This document shows, one piece after another, positions 10,876 to 62,669 of a DNA stretch of 64,000 bases. The position numbers and the translations under genes are program-made. The notes under the pieces are model-generated. The model saw only the letters and a list, made by a program, of their open reading frames with translations. It was not told the origin of the DNA and ran no database searches. Numbering within the stretch: the stretch's first letter is position 1; each line of letters begins with the position of its first letter. Source of the DNA: Eledone cirrhosa (taxonomy: Eukaryota); NCBI GenBank assembly GCA_964016885.1, contig OZ024740.1, forward strand, positions 333,560,001 through 333,624,000. The letters run 5' to 3'.

Positions 10876-12860
10876 GAATCACAGAGCTTAAGGAATCTAC
10901 AGGAATACTCGTCCATGCCGACAAAACCAACAACCTTTACAGCATGGACGTTCAACTTTACCATGAGCAAATCCTCAGGGAATTTAGAAAAAGCTACAAA
11001 AAACGCCCGCGGCTACCCTGGAGGATATCAACATCAAGGTTTATGAGATCGTATCTGGTCTTAGCTTAGATGATAGGACGGCCCCACTCCTAGCGATGGA
11101 GCCGAGGTTTACCATTAAGGACCACAAACCAAACTTTGTGTCTAACCTGCCGGTCAGACTGATAACACCCTCCCGGTCAACCATGGGGGTTATCAGCAAA
11201 AGCGTTTTAGATAGGATCCTGCCCACACTTAAGAGGAAAATAAGGTTACAACTCTGGTCCTGAACCAACCAGGTGCTGGACTGGTTTACATTTTTACCAG
11301 ATAAACATAGGACTAGCTTCATACATTAACAATTACTCCTCTTCTATCTCGCTCATAGTCCTGAACAAGGCTCTCATTTTCGCGATGAATAGAACAGACC
11401 TAACGCGTGACGAGGTCCAAATCATACACGCCGCCAGAAAGACCCTGATTCGATTCGGTGGGGACATATGGACCGGGAGAGACTGGCCAAATAATTTTGA
11501 CAGTACAATGGGCTCCAGTGACTCCGCACAGCTAACGGACTTGGTTGGGATATACATACTCTACGAGATCAGGAGCGAAATACCCAACCTGGGTGGCGGG
11601 CTGTACCAAGACGATGCACTCTTCAACGTCGTGGACCACAGCACCACAATGGTCGAAAATATGAAGAGGAGACACTTCTTTAGCAAGGTAGGACTTAAAG
11701 TAGAGATGGAACCCAATAGAAAAGTAGTGAATTTTCTGGACACCACCCTCAACCTCAACACCAAGCTACACCACCCATATCATAAACCCAATGAGAAGCT
11801 GGTGAATATCAACGCTAGGTCCAATCACCCTACATCTATAGTTAAGGCCGTAGTAAAGAGTGTCTCTGACAGGATCTCTAACTTGTCTGCCAATAAAGAG
11901 ATCTTCAATAGTAATGCTGATTACTATAACTCAGCGCTAGTTAAGGCATCCCACATCCATAGGATCAGCTATAACCCTAAGGGACATGATCGTGATGACC
12001 CAAGGGTACTCCGGGCCAATACCCTCTGGGGCAAAGATCGCCCACCTAACATCTGGCTGACCAGTAGTAACACTCCCAATCCCCTATCCGTCACCACCCC
12101 CGGTAGAGGGTCCCGCATACCCCACCGATCTAATACCAACAACGCTGAAGACCACTGCGGTACGGGGCATAGGCACCCTTGAACCAGCCCCACCACCCAC
12201 CGAACCCTAATTGAGCAGGGAGGCCGCACCGCGCAGGGCTATAGCACCAAGGTGGGCCCTTATAACCCTCATGATAGTCACCGCTCCGCACACCTGAGTG
12301 ACACCAACCGAGCTCGACCAGAGCAGTGCACAGCCCCGTGATGGACCACGGCGGACCCCCAACAACCGCGCAAGCTTAGGACCAGGAAGGTCACATGGTA
12401 TAACGCCCCGTACTCGGTGGGTCTACGTACCAGCCTGGCTAGAACATTATTTAGAGTACTGGATAAATATTTCCCTAGGGCCACAAGTACCATAAAATAT
12501 TCAACAGGCACGCGGTGAAAATTTCCTACTCAACCACACGCTCCCTAGCCCAGCACAAAGCCGGCATAAATAGGAATAGGTTCACTTCCTCTAATCCAAC
12601 CGTAAACCCCGAAGCCACCCAACGGAACCAGCACGCGGGACACTCCAGACCCTGGACAGGCCCATCTAGCACACTGGAACCCAACGACCCTGTGCTGATT
12701 GCGGCGGCTACCCAGCCAACCCCGAGTGATGGTAACCACGCGGTACATGTGCTGGGTGTTAGGAAGTCATGCAATTGCAGAGACCCATCACTATGCCCCC
12801 TTAGTAATGAATGCATGACGAAAAACGTAGTCTACAGGTGGAAGGTCACAACCCCTTTTT
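10876..12860 (+). mobile_element. Penelope-like element, GC-rich and frameshifted (tentatively Naiad-like)
   Basis: Motifs ADKTNNLY, TIKDHKPNF..NLPVRLI, TMGSSDSAQLTDLVG, GGLYQDD, FLDTTLNL, YHKPN...SNHP, RKVTWYNAPYS and CNCRDPSLCPLSNECMTKNVVY. The clade assignment is from recall of motifs. Confidence 0.85.
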
Positions 12861-14992: not shown

Positions 14993-17500
14993 TTAATAAA
15001 AATAGAGGTGTGACACACGAGTTGTGATATATTAGTAAAAAGGAAGAGAAATGCTGACAAATGTTTCCCAGTGAAAAAATAGTTTAATTAGTAATAAGTA
15101 TTAGTTAGTATTCAGTTTTAGTTTTAAGTGTTTACCGGTTACGCATTTCTTATGCTTTTCAAAAATAATTTTGAGATAGAATAGTAGTAGTAGACATTTA
15201 ATTTGGTGGTAGAGGAATGCAGACTTCAGTTTTGAATGGAAAGAATTCTTTGAATGAAAATATTACTTTTACTAAAAGAGGTCAAGCCGGTGAAAGGTAC
15301 ACGAACATTTGATGTTATTAAAGAATAATGCTAATGTTAAAATCGAAGGAGAATAACATTTTTAGCATAAATGTGTTAGTGAGAAATACCAATCTTATTT
15401 AAAAGATAAACAATTTAGATCTATAAAAAGAAATTAAATTAATTTACTTGATAGGTATACATATAGAGATAAATTTATATTAATTCATATAGATGTTTTA
15501 AATAAGAGTTAGATGTTATTAAAGAATAAAGGTGTTAAAAACGAAGGAAAAAAAACGGAGGAAAAAAATGTTGGGGGGATAAATGTATTAGTGAGAAATA
15601 ACAAACTTATATAGACTACAAGGAATTTAGATTCATAACAAGAAATTAAAATAGTATATATGTATACTTACAGGTATTATATTTAGGAAAAGATAGCTGT
15701 AAAAGGGAAATAAAATTATGAATTTCTCAGTAGTAAAATACTAATTATAGGTTAACTAAATAAAAAAAAAATAATTATAATAATTTGTAAAATATAAGTG
15801 TATATTAATTAGGTTTATGATATTTGAAAGTTCTTCTAATTCTATGATTGCACGATATAATTAATTCTGTCGCTTATTTAATAAGATATATTTAGATTTC
15901 ATTATTTCAAAAAGTTCCTGGGAACACAATCTACACTCATTTCTGTTATTTTGATAAGGGGTGGCCCTTTTGAGCACACTCCAGGTCAGGTTATAATCGA
16001 TATTCTTTTTTCTATAATTATTAATTATTTCAGCTCAGGATGTTGTATTAGCTAATGCGGCCTTTTAAAACTATGTTTGTGGGTATTAAATCTTACTTTA
16101 AATTGGTTAGAAGTACCTCCTATATATGAATAAGTTGAGTCCTTAGTGCTAATTTTACATTTATATACTATGTTATTAAGAAGGCAATTTCCTTTTAATG
16201 GGCAATCTGATTTATCTCTAAAGTTACAACCATTCGTGAATATTATAAGAGGGGAGTTAGTAAAATTAGGTATGGAATTTACTCGACTTGTATGTGAAAG
16301 AGATGGTGGTTTGCTGCGGTTTATTTTAGTATTATGGTTATTTTGATGTGTTGGTGGTATATTCATGGTTTTTTTACATTTATATGCATTGTAGGCTCTT
16401 ATATTTTGTTGTATATTTTTGGTAGTGGAGTAGGAGAATTTGACCGTTGATCTATTTAAAATTTGATGGTATTTATGGTTTGCTGGAAAGTTTTTCTCTA
16501 GTATAGTAAAAGATTTTTTAGGGATATTATCTTTAATTTGTAGATTAAATGGAGCATTATACCAAGTAACTCATCTATTACGGTTTCGATGTTGTTTTTT
16601 TTTATTTTTATACGATGTATCCTGATATATCCTGATGTTTACTAAGAGAGTTAGTATTAGTTTTATCGAATACATTCTGGTTAGATGAAAGGTTAGACAT
16701 TCTGAGTGAGATATTATATGCTAGGTTTTTAAGGATAGATCTAGGGTGATTGGATTTTGAGTGTATGTAATATGAGTTTTGGTTAGGTTTATGGTAAGGT
16801 TGGTAGATACCCGTAGATAAGTCTAAAGTTATATCAAGGAAATTAACTACTTTACTGGTGTTTTCAAATGTAATAGTGAGACTATAATAGTCTTTGAGGA
16901 AAGTTCTAATAAGTTTTTTTATTTTGTTCAATTTCTGATAGGCTAAGGTTAGTGGAAAGAAGACAGTCATCACGATATAAACCACCTTTAAAGTGGGGAA
17001 AAGAAGCATTAAATAGAAGAAAGAGGCCCACAATATAGGTAATTTGGGCAGAATCACTAGAGCCCATAGTAATGTCGAATAGATTACTATATGTATTTCT
17101 GGTCAAGTATTCCTTCTGAAATTCCAGTAGTGTTTGTCTAGGGTGCGTGATAATATTAATGTCATCCATAGTTAAATTTGATCTATTTTTGGCAAATATC
17201 AAGGCTTTGTTCAGGAGTATGGGTGATATAGAGGGATAATAAGCATCTATATCGAATTGTAGAAATGAAGCAGATGATTTATTTCTAATATTAGTAAACC
17301 AGTTAATTACCTGGGATGTGTTTTCCAAGAGTGGTAAATTAACGTGTTTTCTTAATTGTGCGATGACTCTATCTAACATTTTTTTTACTAATGATGCCAA
17401 TGTAAGATTTGGAAGGGCATATAAGTCTTATAGAAGGATTAGAGTTAAAATTAGATTTGTGATCTTTCAGGTTAAAATGTGTTTTTTTTTCAGTGTGAAA
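14993..17500 (-). mobile_element. Penelope-like element, AT-rich, RT plus GIY-YIG (tentatively Naiad-like)
   Basis: Motifs FLQFDIDAYYPSI, ITMGSSDSAQIT, GGLYRDD, FLDITLDL...YHKPN...SNHP and GCNFRDKSDCPLKGNCLLNNIVYKC...SYIGGT..FKVRFNTHKHSF. Contains frameshifts. Confidence 0.9.
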
Positions 17501-50663: not shown

Positions 50664-50680
50664 AATATATATATATATAT

Positions 50681-52553
50681 ATGAAAAAGTGAGTCCTTCA
50701 TCAGTGACTCTCCAACCGTCCTCGGCATTTCATCGCTTTAAGGGCCATATGCCTCAGGTTGGTGCGAACAACGGCTAAAAAAAGTCGTTGGGACACGTAA
50801 ATAAAGGGGGACGCTAGAGTAACAACAAAAGGGTTTAAGCAACGGAAAGTGAGTAGAAATAGACAAGTCCCAGATCTCTATGAATATAAACTCTGTGAAA
50901 TCGTGAACAAGAGACGAAAGACCATCGAACCTGGTAGAAATGTGAGCAAGGAAAGAATTTCGCCCAAGTTTGACGGGGGGGGGGAAAGAGAGAGAGAGAG
51001 AGAGAAAGAAAAAGGAGAGAAGAGGAAGAAGAAGAAGAAGAAGAAGAAGAAGAAGAAGAAGAAGAAGAAGAAGAAGAAGATAAGGTGGTCTGGTCTACGA
51101 ATTCGGTAAACGCAAGTTTTGTGAAGTCGCAGACGAAAGAGAGAGAGAAAAAAATGTTTCATACCAGCTCGGTCAAGACTGCGCGAGAAAAGAATTACAC
51201 ACAGGTCAAACTTGAAGGAGGAGGAGGAAATAGGAGGAGGAGAGGTAGTGAAAGAGAATGAGTGAGTGAAAGTTGAGGAGAGAGTAACAGAGAGGGAGAC
51301 TGCTAGAAGTGGTAAAGATACAAGGAACGAAACAGACAGGCAGCATGGAAAAGTAATATGTGTAAATATGATGATAATAATGGAGCTGCGGCGTTGCAAA
51401 TGGGATACATATGAAAAAGTGAGTCCTTCATCAGTGACCCTCCAACCGTCCTCGGCATTTCATCGCTTTAAGGGCCATATGCCTCAGGTTGGTGCGAACA
51501 ACGGCTAAAAAAAGTCGTTGGGACACGTAAATAAAGGGGGACGCTAGAGTAACAACAAAAGGGTTTAAGCAACGGAAAGTGAGTAGAAATAGACAAGTCC
51601 CAGATCTCTATGAATATAAACTCTGTGAAATCGTGAACAAGAGACGAAAGACCATCGAACCTGGTAGAAATGTGAGCAAGGAAAGAATTTCGCCCAAGTT
51701 TGACGGGGGGGGGGGGAAGAGAGAGAGAGAGAGAGAAAGAAAAAGGAGAGAAGAGGAAGAAGAAGAAGAAGAAGAAGAAGAAGAAGAAGAAGAAGAAGAA
51801 GAAGAAGAAGAAGAAGAAGAAGAAGAAGATAAGGTGGTCTGGTCTACGAATTCGGTAAACGCAAGTTTTGTGAAGTCGCAGACGAAAGAGAGAGAGAAAA
51901 AAATTTTTCATACCAGCTCGGTCAAGACTGCGCGAGAAAAGAATTACACACAGGTCAAACTTGAAGGAGGAGGAGGAAAGAGGAGGAGGAGAGGTAGTGA
52001 CAGAGAATGAGTGAGTGAAAGTTGATGAGAGGGTAACAGAGAGGGAGACTGCTAGAAGTGGTAAAGATACAAGGAACGAAACAGACAGGCAGCATGGAAA
52101 AGTAATATGTGTAAATATGATGATAATAATGGAGCTGCGGCGTTGCAAATGGGATACATATGAAAAAGTGAGTCCTTCATCAGTGACCCTCCAACCGTCC
52201 TCGGCATTTCATCGCTTTAAGGGCCATATGCCTCAGGTTGGTGCGAACAACGGCTAAAAAAAGTCGTTGGGACACGTAAATAAAGGGGGACGCTAGAGTA
52301 ACAACAAAAGGGTTTAAGCAACGGAAAGTGAGTAGAAATAGACAAGTCCCAGATCTCTATGAATATAAACTCTGTGAAATCGTGAACAAGAGACGAAAGA
52401 CCATCGAACCTGGTAGAAATGTGAGCAAGGAAAGAATTTCGCCCAAGTTTGACGGGGGGGAAAAAAGAGAGAGAGAGAGAGAGAAAGAAAAAGGAGAGAA
52501 GAAGAAGAAGAAGAAGAAGAAGAAGAAGAAGAAGAAGAAGAAGAAGAAGATAA
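50681..52553 (-). repeat. Tandem array of ~2.5 non-coding units (730 and 749 bp), retrozyme-like
   Basis: Units start at 50681, 51411 and 52160. They are nearly identical except for G-run, (GA)n and (GAA)n lengths, and each carries the 102-nt structured motif. Confidence 0.92.
51423..51524 (-). ncRNA. Candidate permuted/pseudoknotted hammerhead ribozyme (other copies at 50693-50794 and 52172-52273)
   Basis: GTCC CAACGACT TTTTTT AGCCGTTG T TCGC A CCAACC TGA GGCAT A^ TGGCCCT TAAA GCGA T GAA ATGCC GAG GAC GGTTGG AGGGTCA CTGATGA A GGAC. Confidence 0.7.
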
Positions 52554-53870: not shown

Positions 53871-54387
53871 AAAGAATAGAGGTGTAACACACAAGTTATT
53901 ATATATTGGTAAACGGAATAGAAAATGCTGACAAATTGTTCACAGTTGAAAAATGGTTTAATTAGGAATAAAAGAGTATTAGTGATTGTATGGGTTAGTA
54001 ATCAGTTGTGGTTTTAAGTTTTTAAGTTTTTACCGGTTGCGCATTTCTAAATGCTTTTCAAAAATAATTTTGAGATAGAGTGTCCGTGCTGTTTGCTCTG
54101 ATCTGATTAGTTTTGGGAATTCTACCTGTTTTTATGTTAAAAAAGTGGCTCCAATTTGCAAAAATTCTTGTGGTCAAAACAATTTTGATTGGTCGGTAGA
54201 GGTCATGTGAATAAAAAGAGGTCATGTGAATGTAAAAAATTGATTTTGCGCCAAGACTGTTTTTATGTTAAAAAAGTGGCTCCAGCAAAAATTCTTGTGG
54301 TCAAAACAATTTCGATTGGTCGGTAGAGGTCATGTGAATAAAAAATTGGTTTTGCGCCAAGATTGAGAAATGACTCTTTCACAACAA

Positions 54388-54451
<64 letters not shown>

Positions 54452-56321
54452 TAGTAGTAAGGTGTTCGATGTTGTGATAATGGTTAGCAGCGATGTGTGT
54501 CAAATGGCTATTAAGATAAGTGTGTGTGTGTATGTGTGTATAGCAGAGTAATTCATGGTGGCAGGGATGGTCAGTAAGAATGTGTCTGAAAGCAATGGGG
54601 GGTATTTTAGCATGTCAAAAGATATTTTTCAGCTTTTGTCTTATACGGAGAAGTGTGTGTGTGTGTGTGTATATATAAGTCTATTTGTATGTTGATGTAC
54701 GCGTGTGTATGGGTGTGTGTATATATATGTGTGTGTGTGTGTGTGTGGGTGGACCAGTATTTTTTCCCCCTGGTAAAATGGTGTACATTATTCAATTTTT
54801 TCAGTAAAATCGGTTCTCTTAAAAGAACATCAAAAATCTTAACAATAAAAGGTGTGAAATGATATTCACTATATATATATACACATACATATATTCACTA
54901 TATATATATATACATACACATATACATATATATATACATATATATGCACATATATTATTTTGTGTTGCACCATAGAGCATGTGTGTTTACGTATGTCATT
55001 GTGTTTATATGTGGGTAGAGATGTGTGCTGATGTAGGTATGTATGTTGACGTGTGTATGTTGTGGGTTCGTCTTAGGGAGAAGTGTTTAGACGGGGTCCG
55101 TATTTGTTAATGTAGTAAGATTCCTTGCTGATGCGCTGGGTGTGGGTGGCATTATCTTTAAATTTGTAGAGGGGAAAGATTCTGAAGTTGGGAAGATTTT
55201 GGGCGGCACAGGTATCAATGTGTTCACTCAGTGGTATTTTCCTGTATTCCCGTATTTTGATTTGAGATCTATGGACAGTCATGCGTTGGCGGAGGCTGTT
55301 TTTGGTCTGGCCTATGTATTGTTCTCGACAACCTGAACAGGTTAATGCATATATTAGATTTTCCGATGCACATGTGAAATTGTGTTTTGCTATAAAACGT
55401 TGTCCATCTTTGAAATAGAATTCCGAACCCTCTATTAGGTTGATGCAAATGCCACAGTTGGGTCTATCGCATTTTTTTACTGTGGGTTTCGTTGTTGTGA
55501 TTGGCAGTACTTTGGCATGTGTTAAGATGTTTTTCATTGACTTGGATTGTCTTTTGCTCTTTATTATATCGTGTGTTCGTAGAATTTGGTTCATTCTATG
55601 GTCCTTTTTCAATACAGGGATGTTCTGGAGGATGGTGTCAAAGGCCTCATTGTTGAGGGGGTTGTGTGTGGAGATGTATGGAAGAGCTTTTAGTTTTGGT
55701 TGATTTATTTTAGGGTGTCTAAGGTCCTGGGTACTGAGTTTTAGGGCACGTTGGATTCCATTGTCAATTAGTGATGCAGGGTAGTCCCTGCCTATGAGTG
55801 TGTCCTTTAGTTCTTGTAGCCGTAAGTAGCAGATGTTTTTATTGGAGACTATAGTACATATTCTCTTGGCTAAGTTGTAGGGAATATTAATTTTAACGTG
55901 TCTAGGGTGGCAAGAGTTGAAGGGGAGATATTGCTTGGAGTCTGTGGGCTTGTAGTATATGTCTGTTTCTATTTTTTTGTTATGGGTTTTAATGAGGATG
56001 TTGAGGAAGGGGAGTTGTTGATGGCTGTATTCCATCGTGAAGTTAATATTCGTGTTGAGCCCATTTATAAGGGTGTGAAATTCTTTAAGTTTCTCGATGT
56101 CTTCGTGCCAAAGGATGAAGCAGTCATCTAGATATCGCTTCCAGTTCCTTTCAATGTGTAAGTGGAGGGTGTTTCCAAATTTGTTTAGGACTTTAGTGTG
56201 GAGGGTGATTTCCAGGTATCCCATGACTAGGTTGGCATAAGTGGGGGCTGTTTTCGTTCCCATAGCGGTCCCAGATTTCTGCCTGTAGGGTTTGTTATTG
56301 AAAACAAAGTAATTGTTCTCC
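53867..56321 (-). mobile_element. 5'-truncated Penelope-like element (Neptune/Poseidon-type) with RT C-terminal half and GIY-YIG
   Basis: Open frame GTAMGTKTAPTYANL, WKRYLDD, YYKPTD...SCHP, CDRPNCGIC, NLIYALTCSGCREQYIGQT...RQRM. Long 3' UTR ending in (TA)n. Confidence 0.93.
55073..56320 (-). CDS. PLE RT/GIY-YIG ORF, 5'-truncated
   Basis: Uninterrupted part of the 448-aa track ORF. The first ~33 aa come from the inverted UTR arm and are not genuine. Confidence 0.85.
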   Translation of the reverse strand, partial: ENNYFVFNNKPYRQKSGTAMGTKTAPTYANLVMGYLEITLHTKVLNKFGNTLHLHIERNWKRYLDDCFILWHEDIEKLKEFHTLINGLNTNINFTMEYSHQQLPFLNILIKTHNKKIETDIYYKPTDSKQYLPFNSCHPRHVKINIPYNLAKRICTIVSNKNICYLRLQELKDTLIGRDYPASLIDNGIQRALKLSTQDLRHPKINQPKLKALPYISTHNPLNNEAFDTILQNIPVLKKDHRMNQILRTHDIIKSKRQSKSMKNILTHAKVLPITTTKPTVKKCDRPNCGICINLIEGSEFYFKDGQRFIAKHNFTCASENLIYALTCSGCREQYIGQTKNSLRQRMTVHRSQIKIREYRKIPLSEHIDTCAAQNLPNFRIFPLYKFKDNATHTQRISKESYYINKYGPRLNTSP

Positions 56322-56698
56322 ACTGGAGCCACTTTTTTAACATAAAAATATTCTTGGCGCAAAATCAATTTTTTACATTCACATGACCTCTTTTTATTCA
56401 TGTGACCTCTACCGACCAATCAAAATTGTTTTGACCACAAGAATTTTTGCAAATTGGAGCCACTTTTTTAACATAAAAACAGGTAGAATTCCCAAATCTA
56501 ATCAGATCAGAGCAAACAGCACGGACACTCTATCTCAAAATTATTTTTGAAAAGCATTTAGAAATGCTCAACCGGTAAAAACTTAAAAACTTAAAACCAC
56601 AACTGAATACTAACCCATACAATCACTAATACTCTTTTATTCCTAATTAAACCATTTTTCAACTGTGAACAATTTGTCAGCCTTTTCTATTCCGTTTA

Positions 56699-56706
<8 letters not shown>
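56322..56706 (+). mobile_element. Inverted partial 3' repeat (pLTR) of the adjacent PLE
   Basis: Reverse complement of about 53901-54285, ending in (TA)n. Confidence 0.9.
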
Positions 56707-56734
<28 letters not shown>

Positions 56735-57835: not shown

Positions 57836-58221
57836 TGATAGTAAGTGTTTAATTAGTACGATGCCGAATGATATCCACAGCTTAAGTTATTAATTTCTGC
57901 GAATCATTGACGTAAACAATCATTAACATTTAAAATAATCCAATACGTTACATATAGAATCGTGCGACATATCATATGGCAGATAAATCTAGAAGCATAA
58001 CATTTTCACACTAAATAACAATAGGTAAATAAGTAAAAAAACCTATATGTATATGAATATGAGCATTCATAAATATCTAAATGTAATTACTACATATGTA
58101 ACATTGCAAATATTCTATAAATACTTATGTGTACAAATAGATCCTAGGATTAACCGGATATCTTACCACACGTATATATATATATATACGTGTGGTAAGA
58201 TATATATAATCTGGGACCACT

Positions 58222-59412
58222 ATGGGAACGAAAACAGCCCCCACTTATGCCAACCTAGTCATGGGATACCTGGAAATCACCCTCCACACTAAAGTCGTAA
58301 ACAAATTTGGAAACACTCTCCACTTACACATAGAAAGGAACTGCAAGCGATATCTAGATGACTTCTTCATCCTTTGGCACGAAGACATCGAGAAACTTAA
58401 AGAATTTCACACCCTTATAAATGGGCTCAACACGAATATTAACTTCACGATGGAATACAGCCATCAACAACTCCCCTTCCTCAACATCCTCATTAAAACC
58501 CATAACAAAAAAATAGAAACAGACATATACTACAAGCCCACAGACTCCAAGCAATATCTTCCTTTCAACTCTTGCCACCCTAGACACGTTAAAATTAATA
58601 TTCCCTACAACTTAGCCAAGAGAATCTGTACTATAGTCTCCAATAAAAACACCTGCTACTTACGGCTACAAGAACTAAAGGACACACTCATAGGCAGGGA
58701 CTACCCTGCATCACTAATTGACAATGGAATCCAACGTGCCCTAAAACTCAGTACCCAGGACCTTAGACACGCTAAAGTAAATCAACCGAAACTAAAAGCT
58801 CTTCCATACATCTCCACACACAACTCCCTCAACAATGAGGCCTTTGACACCATCCTCCAGAACATCCCTGTGTTGAAAAAGGACCATAGAATGAACCAAA
58901 TCCTACGAACACACGATATCATAAAGAGCAAAAGACAATCCAAGTCAATGAAAAACATCCTAACACATGCCAAAGTACTGCCAACCACAACAACGAAACC
59001 CACAGTAAAAAAATGCGATAGACCCGACTGTGGCATTTGCATTAACCTAATAGAGGGTTCGGAATTCTATTTCAAAGAAGGACAACGTTTTATAGTAAAA
59101 CACAATTTCACATGTGCATCGGAAAATCTAATATATGTATTAACTTGCTCAGGTTGTCGGGAACAATACATAGGCCAGACCAAAAACAGCCTCCGCCAAC
59201 GCATGACTGTCCATAGATCCCAAATTAAAATACGGGAATACAGGAAAATACCACTGAGTGAACACATTGATACCTGTGCCGCCCAATATCATCTCAACTT
59301 CAGAATCTTTCCCCTCTACAAATTTACAGATAATGCCACCCACACCCAGCGCATCAGCAAGGAATCTTACTTTATTAACAAATACGGACCCCGTCTAAAC
59401 ACTTCTCCCTAA
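58222..59412 (+). CDS. PLE RT/GIY-YIG ORF, 5'-truncated (396 aa)
   Basis: MGTKTAPTYANL...RYLDD...NLIYVLTCSGCREQYIGQT...ESYFINKY. Confidence 0.85.
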   Translation: MGTKTAPTYANLVMGYLEITLHTKVVNKFGNTLHLHIERNCKRYLDDFFILWHEDIEKLKEFHTLINGLNTNINFTMEYSHQQLPFLNILIKTHNKKIETDIYYKPTDSKQYLPFNSCHPRHVKINIPYNLAKRICTIVSNKNTCYLRLQELKDTLIGRDYPASLIDNGIQRALKLSTQDLRHAKVNQPKLKALPYISTHNSLNNEAFDTILQNIPVLKKDHRMNQILRTHDIIKSKRQSKSMKNILTHAKVLPTTTTKPTVKKCDRPDCGICINLIEGSEFYFKEGQRFIVKHNFTCASENLIYVLTCSGCREQYIGQTKNSLRQRMTVHRSQIKIREYRKIPLSEHIDTCAAQYHLNFRIFPLYKFTDNATHTQRISKESYFINKYGPRLNTSP

Positions 59413-61321: not shown

Positions 61322-61400
<79 letters not shown>

Positions 61401-61407
<7 letters not shown>

Positions 61408-62660
61408 TACTTGTCCCCCTCGCCTTACGCGAATTCTGGTCCCATTAACTATTTTTAGTTATTGCTCGCACCAACCTTAGGTATCTGATTTTTAATGCGA
61501 TGAAATACCAATGATGGTTGGAAAATCACCGACAAAGGACTATTTTTATCATATGTAACCCATGTGCAAACCACGCAGTATTCTTCTTTCTTCTCAGGTT
61601 TTTATATATATTTACCTCGGCTGCGTTTGTCTGTTTCTCTCTTACTGCTTCCCCGCTCTCTTTGTTTCTCTAACCTTCTTTCGCCCCCTCTGTGAGTTAC
61701 AATTTCTCTCGACTGACCTCTTCCACACACTTCCACTCACTCACTCCCTATTTCTCCCCTTCTCACTTCCTCCCGTTTGGCTTGTGTGGGTCTCTTCTTG
61801 CTCACATCTCACACACTTCAACACGGTCTGTACTTCTCTCGCTCATGAAATCCACCCAGCTTATGATGACCGGACAACCATGTTGCTTGTTTATTTTCCT
61901 ATCTTCGGTTTGCTTTTATCCTTCTATGTTGCTTACTTTCCCCCCTCGCATTACGCGAATTCTGGTCCCAATAACTTTTTCTAGTTATTGCTCGCACCAG
62001 CCTGAGATATCTGATTTTTAATGCGATGAAATACCAATGATGGTTGGAAAATCACCGACGAAGGACTATTTTTATCATATGTAACCCATGTGCAAACCAC
62101 GCAGTATTCTTCTTTCTTCTCATGTTTTTTATATATATTTACCTCGGCTGCGTTTGTCTGTTTCTCTCTTACTGCTTCCCCGTTCTCTCTGTTTCTCTCA
62201 CCTTCTTTCGCCCCTCTGTGAGTTACACTTTCTCTCGACTGACCTCTTCCACACACTTCCACTCATTCACTCCCTGTTTCTCCCCTTCTCACTTCCTCCC
62301 GTTTGGCTTGTGTGGGTCTCTTCTTGCTCACATCTCACACACATTAACACGGTCTGTACTTCTCTCGCTCATGAAATCCACCCAGCTTATACTGACCGGA
62401 CAAACATGTTGCTTGTTTATTTTCCTATCTTCGGTTTTCTTTTATCCTTCTATGTTGTTTACTTTTCCCCCTCGCCTTACGCGAATTCTGGTCCCAATAA
62501 CTTTTTTTAGTTATTGCTCGCACCAGCCTGAAACATCTGATTTTTAATGCGATGAAATACCAATGATGGTTGGAAAATCACCGACGAAGGACTATTTTTA
62601 TCATATGTAACCCATGTGCAAACCGCGCAGTATTCTTCTTTCTTCTCATGTTTTTTATAT
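61401..62660 (+). repeat. Tandem array of ~2.4 non-coding 526-bp units, retrozyme-like
   Basis: Motif copies at 61439, 61965 and 62491 (period 526). Pyrimidine-rich body with (TA)n on both sides. Confidence 0.92.
61965..62066 (+). ncRNA. Candidate permuted/pseudoknotted hammerhead ribozyme (other copies at 61439-61540 and 62491-62592)
   Basis: GTCC CAATAACT TTTTCT AGTTATTG C TCGC A CCAGCC TGA GATAT C^ TGATTTT TAAT GCGA T GAA ATACC AAT GAT GGTTGG AAAATCA CCGACGA A GGAC. Confidence 0.65.
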
Positions 62661-62669
62661 ATATATATA

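Follow-up and report, generated by a model that had tools for sequence, protein, structure and literature searches.

A hammerhead motif of SGC order with a split helix II in retrozyme-like tandem repeats of Eledone cirrhosa

Eckert et al. 2023 divided the hammerhead ribozyme into blocks S, G and C (PMC10085705). According to their account, type-SGC is natural, is known from metatranscriptomes only and cleaves at the predicted site in vitro, its monomers acting in cis. The other non-circular order, type-CSG, was previously represented by two metagenomic sequences only. The published SGC descriptors demand CGAAA, CUGAUGAG or CUGAUGAUG, and at least two further stem II pairs (PMC10085705). PMC13725137 cites Eckert et al. 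and its accessible text holds nothing more on the topic. A literature search that took in few subscription papers found no SGC or CSG hammerhead placed in animal genomes or Naiads, and no description of a hammerhead with a split helix II.

Hammerheads of a different order are carried by the animal non-LTR retrozymes, which are dispersed non-coding tandem repeats with one type I hammerhead per unit of ~300 nt, a GC content below 45% and a proposed PLE origin (PMC7229834; 10.64898/2026.07.22.740005). Among PLEs, Craig et al. 2021 reported Naiads as lacking canonical hammerheads, and marked an unexplained 'HHR_core' or 'HHR_half_core' in some of them, with half the core on either side (PMC8557442). 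The same authors regard cephalopod Naiads as old remnants and describe (TA)n bias, tails and inversions as general PLE traits. The PLE tail has been explained by two internal reverse-transcription starts, and internal priming has been shown (Frangieh et al. 2024, PMC11167929).

We analyzed a 64,000-nt stretch of the Eledone cirrhosa genome, referred to here as the window (Table 1). It contains a minus-strand tandem array, family 1, with one ribozyme motif in each of three units spaced 749 and 730 nt apart. The hammerhead core of each motif (CUGAUGA, GAAA and UH, with H17 = A) lies in register with stem III, which has 5 bp including A15.1-U16.1, and with the 7 bp of stem I. Read 5' to 3', the blocks follow the order S, G, C. 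The motif resembles type-SGC (HRIMA-1 motif, SGC variant) in this order, in its complete core, in the pseudoknot formed by stems I and III and in the 3-4 nt linker from stem I to the strand before GAAA (PMC10085705). It differs in helix II. In the published SGC ribozymes, stem II forms directly over several pairs and is connected to stem I by a further helix (PMC10085705), whereas here helix II is split by a bridging strand that contains a hairpin. Stem III is also lengthened by an apparent bend and an added helix, P-d, and the motif is chromosomal and multicopy, unlike the published form.

Table 1. Positions of the SGC-order motif, its helices and neighboring elements in the window.
Feature	Position	Strand	Remarks
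Ribozyme copy 1	52172..52273	-	same sequence as copy 2; predicted cut 3' of 52227
Ribozyme copy 2 (reference copy)	51423..51524	-	SGC-order hammerhead, split helix II
Ribozyme copy 3	50693..50794	-	single G>A giving a C.A mismatch in stem I; predicted cut 3' of 50748
Copy 2 bridging strand	51494..51524	-	
Copy 2 P-a 5' strand	51524-51521	-	partner is the strand after CUGAUGA
Copy 2 hairpin P-b	51520-51499	-	within bridging strand
Copy 2 P-c 5' strand	51497-51494	-	partner is the strand before GAAA
Copy 2 P-d 5' strand and non-bulged strand of k-turn-like loop	51484..51492	-	P-d 5' 51492-51487; loop strand 51486-51484
Copy 2 block S	51471..51483	-	stem III 5' 51483-51479; H17 = A 51478; stem I 5' 51477-51471
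Copy 2 block G	51454..51466	-	P-c 3' 51466-51463, U11.1, GAAA, stem III 3'
Copy 2 bulged strand of k-turn-like loop and P-d 3' strand	51442..51453	-	loop strand 51453-51448; P-d 3' 51447-51442
Copy 2 block C	51423..51441	-	stem I 3' 51441-51435, CUGAUGA 51434-51428, A10.1, P-a 3' 51426-51423
Family-1 tandem array	50675..52553	-	~2.5 units of 730-749 nt
Family-2 tandem array	61399..62667	+	526-nt unit, between (TA)n tracts
Family-2 ribozymes	61439-61541, 61965-62067, 62491-62593	+	~75% identical, compensatory changes
Broken Naiad-type RT remnant	1-~2200	+	IPMG motif at 101, interrupted 3' UTR; also locus L199
Two long RT + C-terminal GIY-YIG ORFs (PF01541)	55073-56419 (-), 58210-59412 (+)		opposite orientations, 5'-truncated
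Fragments of another PLE clade	11244-12182 (+), 16052-17427 (-)		
CUGAnGA...GAAA, conventional order	28327 (+), 26884 (-), 50420 (+), 46075 (+), 45952 (-), 5605 (-)		
386-nt inverted repeat	53900-54285, 56323-56708		98% complementary; holds 127-131-nt direct repeats

The three copies had been called at 52273-52172, 51524-51423 and 50794-50693 in an initial annotation of this DNA, and our coordinates agree. Stem III, stem I, CUGAUGA, GAAA, UH and the A10.1-U11.1 pair are all where that annotation put them, and cleavage 3' of 52227, 51478 and 50748, as it predicted, is what the register implies. Its proposal of a non-circular, pseudoknotted hammerhead order is supported, with stems I and III both in register; stem I is intact in copies 1 and 2, but the copy at 50794 carries its mismatch there. 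The annotation also took the strand order X-Y-Z to be new unless a published model already described it. X-Y-Z is S-G-C, an order that is published and cleaves (Eckert et al. 2023, PMC10085705), so the novelty of the topology falls. The expectation that standard descriptors would miss the motif was borne out. The window contains no Rfam family at gathering score, the motif region gave no match to a hammerhead model at E up to 10, and the published SGC descriptors would also pass over the motif because it has UGAAA, CUGAUGAA and one direct pair. A match to the Rfam family ceN56 was dismissed as chance (16 bits against a cut-off of 60). What appears to be new is the split helix II, the genomic, retrozyme-like retroelement setting and a connection to Naiads, the last two of which the annotation did not name.

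Several helices stand in for stem II. A direct stem II between the strand after CUGAnGA and the strand before GAAA is absent, and P-a, P-b and P-c take its place. After at most one direct pair (10.1-11.1), the strand leaving CUGAnGA pairs upstream to form P-a; the bridging strand then folds into hairpin P-b and pairs with the strand entering GAAA to form P-c. The hairpin and the two helices of the initial annotation, GUCC/GGAC and UCGC/GCGA, are all present, although its '8-bp hairpin' includes one A.C mismatch, which is an A-U pair in family 2. The annotation left out the 6-bp helix P-d (CCAACC/GGUUGG) and its k-turn-like joint to stem III. In the k-turn consensus, two helices are separated by a 3-nt bulge and then by G.A and A.G pairs. 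The joint here has this arrangement, and its G and A positions are kept in families 1-5. The 3' strand of P-d leads directly into stem I, so the far ends of stem I, P-c and P-d meet again. This motif lacks the helix that connects stems I and II at their free sides, a role that the far-end junction may fill.

In a nested-only fold, a method in which pseudoknots cannot form, the core of the motif was drawn into a competing hairpin (mean pair probability 0.89), with pair probabilities of 0.08 for P-a and 0.01 for P-c. A circular monomer folded by the same pseudoknot-free approach retained P-b alone. The isolated motif folded no better than shuffles (z = -0.3 to -1.7).

Comparison among families provided evidence for the helices. 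The second tandem array in the window defines family 2, and three more families were found in flanks, giving five families in all. Using one copy from each, we scored 35 proposed pairs. Across the five families, 94.9% of cells were paired and 14 of the 35 pairs showed two-sided (compensatory) change, including 6/7 pairs in stem I and 3/6 in P-d; pair 10.1-11.1 was seen as A-U, U-A and G-C. Slid controls were 29-47% paired, and 0/500 shuffles scored as high, a count that is not a probability because the five families are related. The core is invariant over the five families except at N7 and H17, in keeping with the expectation of the initial annotation that homologues would keep CUGAnGA, GAAA and UH. 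P-c does not vary among these related families. Distant families, represented by majority consensuses of seven older groups with 3-12 copies each, rewrite P-c as GGCGC/GCGCC, GACCC/GGGUC or ACGA/UCGU, every version being accompanied by a distinct P-a, P-b and P-d. All seven groups keep the helix order with new letters; weak spots are P-a in group B4, which is weak, and stem III in group F, which has decayed.

Direct stem II is short throughout. Among 57 parsed sequences, 56 have 0-1 bp, and the exception, a mutated copy, has 2 bp. Some families have A.C, U.C or C.C at 10.1/11.1, and both bases are then able to pair with the bridging strand. Families 1-5 and F have a k-turn-like joint where stem III meets P-d; the other families have a simple bulge or loop there. 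Since the form of the joint varies in this way, a bend between the two helices seems to be the feature that is conserved. Substitutions in the ribozyme numbered 13/3916, compared with 169/18026, a deficit that is inflated by subfamily variants and carries no weight in our argument.

The arrangement occurs more often than chance predicts. A permissive parser recovered the whole periphery in 46 of 63 distinct cores, against 84 of 460 upstream shuffles, and our descriptor found no match in 1.92 Mb of Markov-resampled window sequence. Two patterns with GAAA before CUGAUGA gave 539 and 262 matches in the genome, against 8 and 47 in the control. Stems I and III were in SGC register at 13/30 and 6/29 genome sites with GAAA before CUGAnGA. 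The same register test returned 1/84 viral sites (drawn from the 80 loci listed among at least 124) and 1/69 metagenome sites; motif model R2 matched none of the 79 stretches in the metagenome scan.

Family 1 is dispersed through the host assembly (3.0 Gb). The unit gave 99 matches in the 40 scored of 2314 candidates, and the motif alone gave 546 candidates. Among motif matches at 30 overlapping loci, 56/93 were identical to that of the window, and 45 monomers diverged from their own consensus by 0.83%. These identical copies and the low divergence indicate that family 1 is very young. The array in the window is 5'-truncated in a (CTT)n run and stops 15 nt past CUGAUGA in (TA)n. Of the 18 3' ends listed, two continue into another unit and the remaining 16 all end in (AT)n; 14 of these true ends stop 15 nt after CUGAUGA and two after a further tail. 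The 5' ends examined (n = 17) fall at scattered positions, three of them with an inverted piece. Partial tandems, 5' truncation, an inverted 5' copy, an optional tail and a microsatellite target are all PLE traits. Within arrays, 32 variants are common to all monomers and 81 are not, a mixed result as regards a circular template. Dimers on C19 and C23 (L013/L019, L018, L020/L021) carry identical monomer-specific variants, a coincidence indicating that these dimers were copied as dimers or duplicated. At L078/L079 (C1:18735549-18735638), a 5' inversion breaks in the ribozyme linker and leaves a perfect palindrome of blocks G and C. Families 1 and 3 also have in common a pyrimidine tract ending in CAG (~51660 on the minus strand of the window; L061-L075), which looks like a retained 3' splice site of the kind found in PLE 5' UTR introns.

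Family 2 gave 1326 candidates in the genome. Its majority core is intact, with U4 in 42/52 full-length rows and C4 in 10/52. The window copies are among the C4 group; all three carry U4>C, and one also has a change at G8. The listed family-2 ends stop ~75 nt past the core in a TA-rich microsatellite in 27 of 29 cases.

These elements resemble the animal non-LTR retrozymes: they are non-coding, form dispersed tandem arrays, carry one hammerhead per unit, and have a GC content below 45% and a proposed PLE origin (PMC7229834; 10.64898/2026.07.22.740005). They depart from that class in hammerhead type, which is SGC rather than type I, and in unit length, ~490-790 nt rather than ~300 nt. Retrozymes are expressed as monomeric linear and circular RNA (PMC7229834). 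Like Naiads, the elements described here favor (TA)n, are 5'-truncated, sometimes have an inverted 5' copy and can carry a tail; unlike Naiads, whose ORF combines an N-terminal GIY-YIG, CxC and a DKA-type RT, the units carry no ORF (Craig et al. 2021, PMC8557442).

We compared the motif with 54 published Naiad consensuses (PMC8557442 supplement), which were parsed by eye around the core motifs and without a computed alignment. The counts are lower bounds, the other 34/54 consensuses lying outside the parse, and the records called Clytia, Morbakka, Pristionchus and Ascaris are named by their order in the file. At least 10 of the 54 clearly show, by eye and in SGC order, the complete P-a, P-b, P-c, P-d, III, H, I architecture, namely Beroe (with a stem I of just 2 bp), one Clytia, three Acropora, two Morbakka, one arthropod (a part 19 record), Octopus bimaculoides and O. 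vulgaris. The Euprymna Naiad has a looser version, and one further record (part 17) is ordered S-G-C and includes a long insertion. The ribozyme lies at the 3' end of these Naiad consensuses. The octopus Naiad motif matches family 3 in its k-turn-like loop, in a 12-nt stretch of the hairpin loop and in the letters that follow the core. Read by eye, SGC-type Naiads and the families described here appear to share a fold.

Type-CSG, the other non-circular order (PMC10085705), is not the form found in the window. Eight nematode Naiads (two Pristionchus, three Nippostrongylus, Haemonchus, Heligmosomoides and Ascaris) show it by eye in clean form, and their stem II is canonical. An extra long helix flanks block C in these nematode hammerheads. 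Several arthropod Naiads (PMC8557442 File S5, parts 16-19) have CCCC before CUGAnGA and are possibly a further variant.

We searched the genome for an autonomous Naiad. Of 13 fetched Naiad RT-motif matches, 12 were broken Naiad RTs resembling the octopus element. Searches for an intact Naiad ORF with two RT-motif patterns gave no match, and two more patterns were at or below control (17 vs 16 and 21 vs 54). Model R2, blastn and pattern scans detected no ribozyme near the broken Naiad RTs, and tblastn of the window's PLE proteins against the loci detected no RT upstream of the ribozyme. No N-terminal-nuclease element was recognizable among the best 150 phmmer matches to the window's GIY-YIG domain, seven of which were read. 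Loci L128, L158 and L159 were considered as autonomous Naiads and rejected as ORF-less old remnants.

We consider it likely, from comparison of sequences, that the unit is a protein-less, retrozyme-like PLE derivative, most likely of a Naiad, and that it carries near its 3' end a hammerhead of SGC order with a rebuilt helix II. Such a fold would rebuild the normal hammerhead active site, and the far-end junction of stem I, P-c and P-d would substitute for the contact between loops I and II. The RNA is predicted to be cut 3' of H17 (51478), perhaps only with the help of the element's protein. Multimeric transcripts would be reduced to monomers, which might circularize, as animal retrozymes do. 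In trans, a PLE reverse transcriptase/GIY-YIG nuclease could nick (TA)n DNA and begin to copy from an internal position ~60-125 nt 3' of the cut. The fixed 3' end is also downstream of the cleavage site, near the 5' end that a cleaved monomer would have, so the template would be a circle or an uncut multimer. An enzyme passing through this template and dropping off at random could generate head-to-tail arrays.

Other readings of the motif were weighed against this model. A chance arrangement of short motifs inside a repeat would be compatible with isolated motifs that fold no better than shuffles, but the covariation, the controls and the conservation across phyla all oppose it; we regard this reading as refuted, with a negligible probability, because compensatory changes occur in independent families. 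Alternatively, the fold may be conserved while being dead for cleavage or dependent on protein, serving mainly as an RNA handle by which a PLE protein sets the start of reverse transcription. The 3' end is fixed 15-75 nt past the core, a competing hairpin is predicted in family 1 and helix II is non-canonical, all of which would suit a handle. The Anolis PLE hammerhead provides a precedent, as it needs protein and is dispensable for insertion in vitro (PMC11167929). We nevertheless find this explanation unlikely. The catalytic positions, including an H17 that is not G and the A15.1-U16.1 pair, are kept across families and phyla while the helices are otherwise rewritten, a pattern that suggests selection on catalysis.

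The active form might instead be a dimer of neighboring units, with S and C of one unit and G of the next restoring a type-III order. The elements are tandem, and axolotl retrozyme hammerheads perform better as dimers (PMC7229834), yet P-d and P-c covary inside one unit and so fix G beside its own S, and canonical helix II would still be absent after the swap. SGC monomers cleave in cis (PMC10085705), and Naiad_Ovul is annotated 'no pLTR' and has one ribozyme copy in the published supplement (PMC8557442, by eye). A dimeric form is accordingly very improbable in our estimation. A reading to which we give considerable weight, though somewhat below even, accepts the ribozyme as described and has the young arrays moved by another PLE clade of the Neptune/Nematis type, the Naiad ancestors being long dead. 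All Naiad RTs that we found are broken, yet family 1 is only ~0.8% diverged; cephalopod Naiads have been called old remnants (PMC8557442), and the window itself holds long RT/GIY-YIG ORFs with a C-terminal nuclease. We saw no sequence link between the arrays and those ORFs, however, and an active Naiad could have escaped exact patterns or the assembly, or be present in few copies.

Returning to the model of a Naiad-derived ribozyme, the comparisons tilt slightly in favor of a broader view in which Naiads carry active non-circular hammerheads across animals, of the CSG type in nematodes and of the SGC type with split helix II in ctenophores, cnidarians, arthropods and molluscs. If this is true, the split SGC form falls outside the six-permutation scheme, which takes helix II as directly formed, and is a new, cage-like way of folding a hammerhead that dates back hundreds of millions of years and gave rise to retrozyme families of its own in the Eledone cirrhosa genome. 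Metatranscriptomic SGC and CSG ribozymes would gain relatives in cellular genomes, and, within a literature search covering few subscription papers, these would be the first SGC and CSG permutations in animal genomes. The model also offers an answer to the stated puzzle of a large PLE clade seemingly without the hammerhead that other PLEs keep. A multi-helix junction would be able to replace helix II, held indivisible in the permutation scheme, with implications for hammerhead structure and for the engineering of ribozymes. Since a split helix II escapes both descriptors and Rfam, surveys based on them probably undercount hammerheads and retrozymes in invertebrates.

The window contains other PLE sequences. 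The two PF01541 ORFs (55073-56419 and 58210-59412) have what we take to be a Neptune-like linker, and the fragments at 11244-12182 and 16052-17427 are presumably Nematis-like. The six sites with CUGAnGA...GAAA in conventional order are probably ordinary type I PLE hammerheads, and some of them are arranged as inverted pairs. The 386-nt inverted repeat overlaps the 5' end of a PLE ORF.
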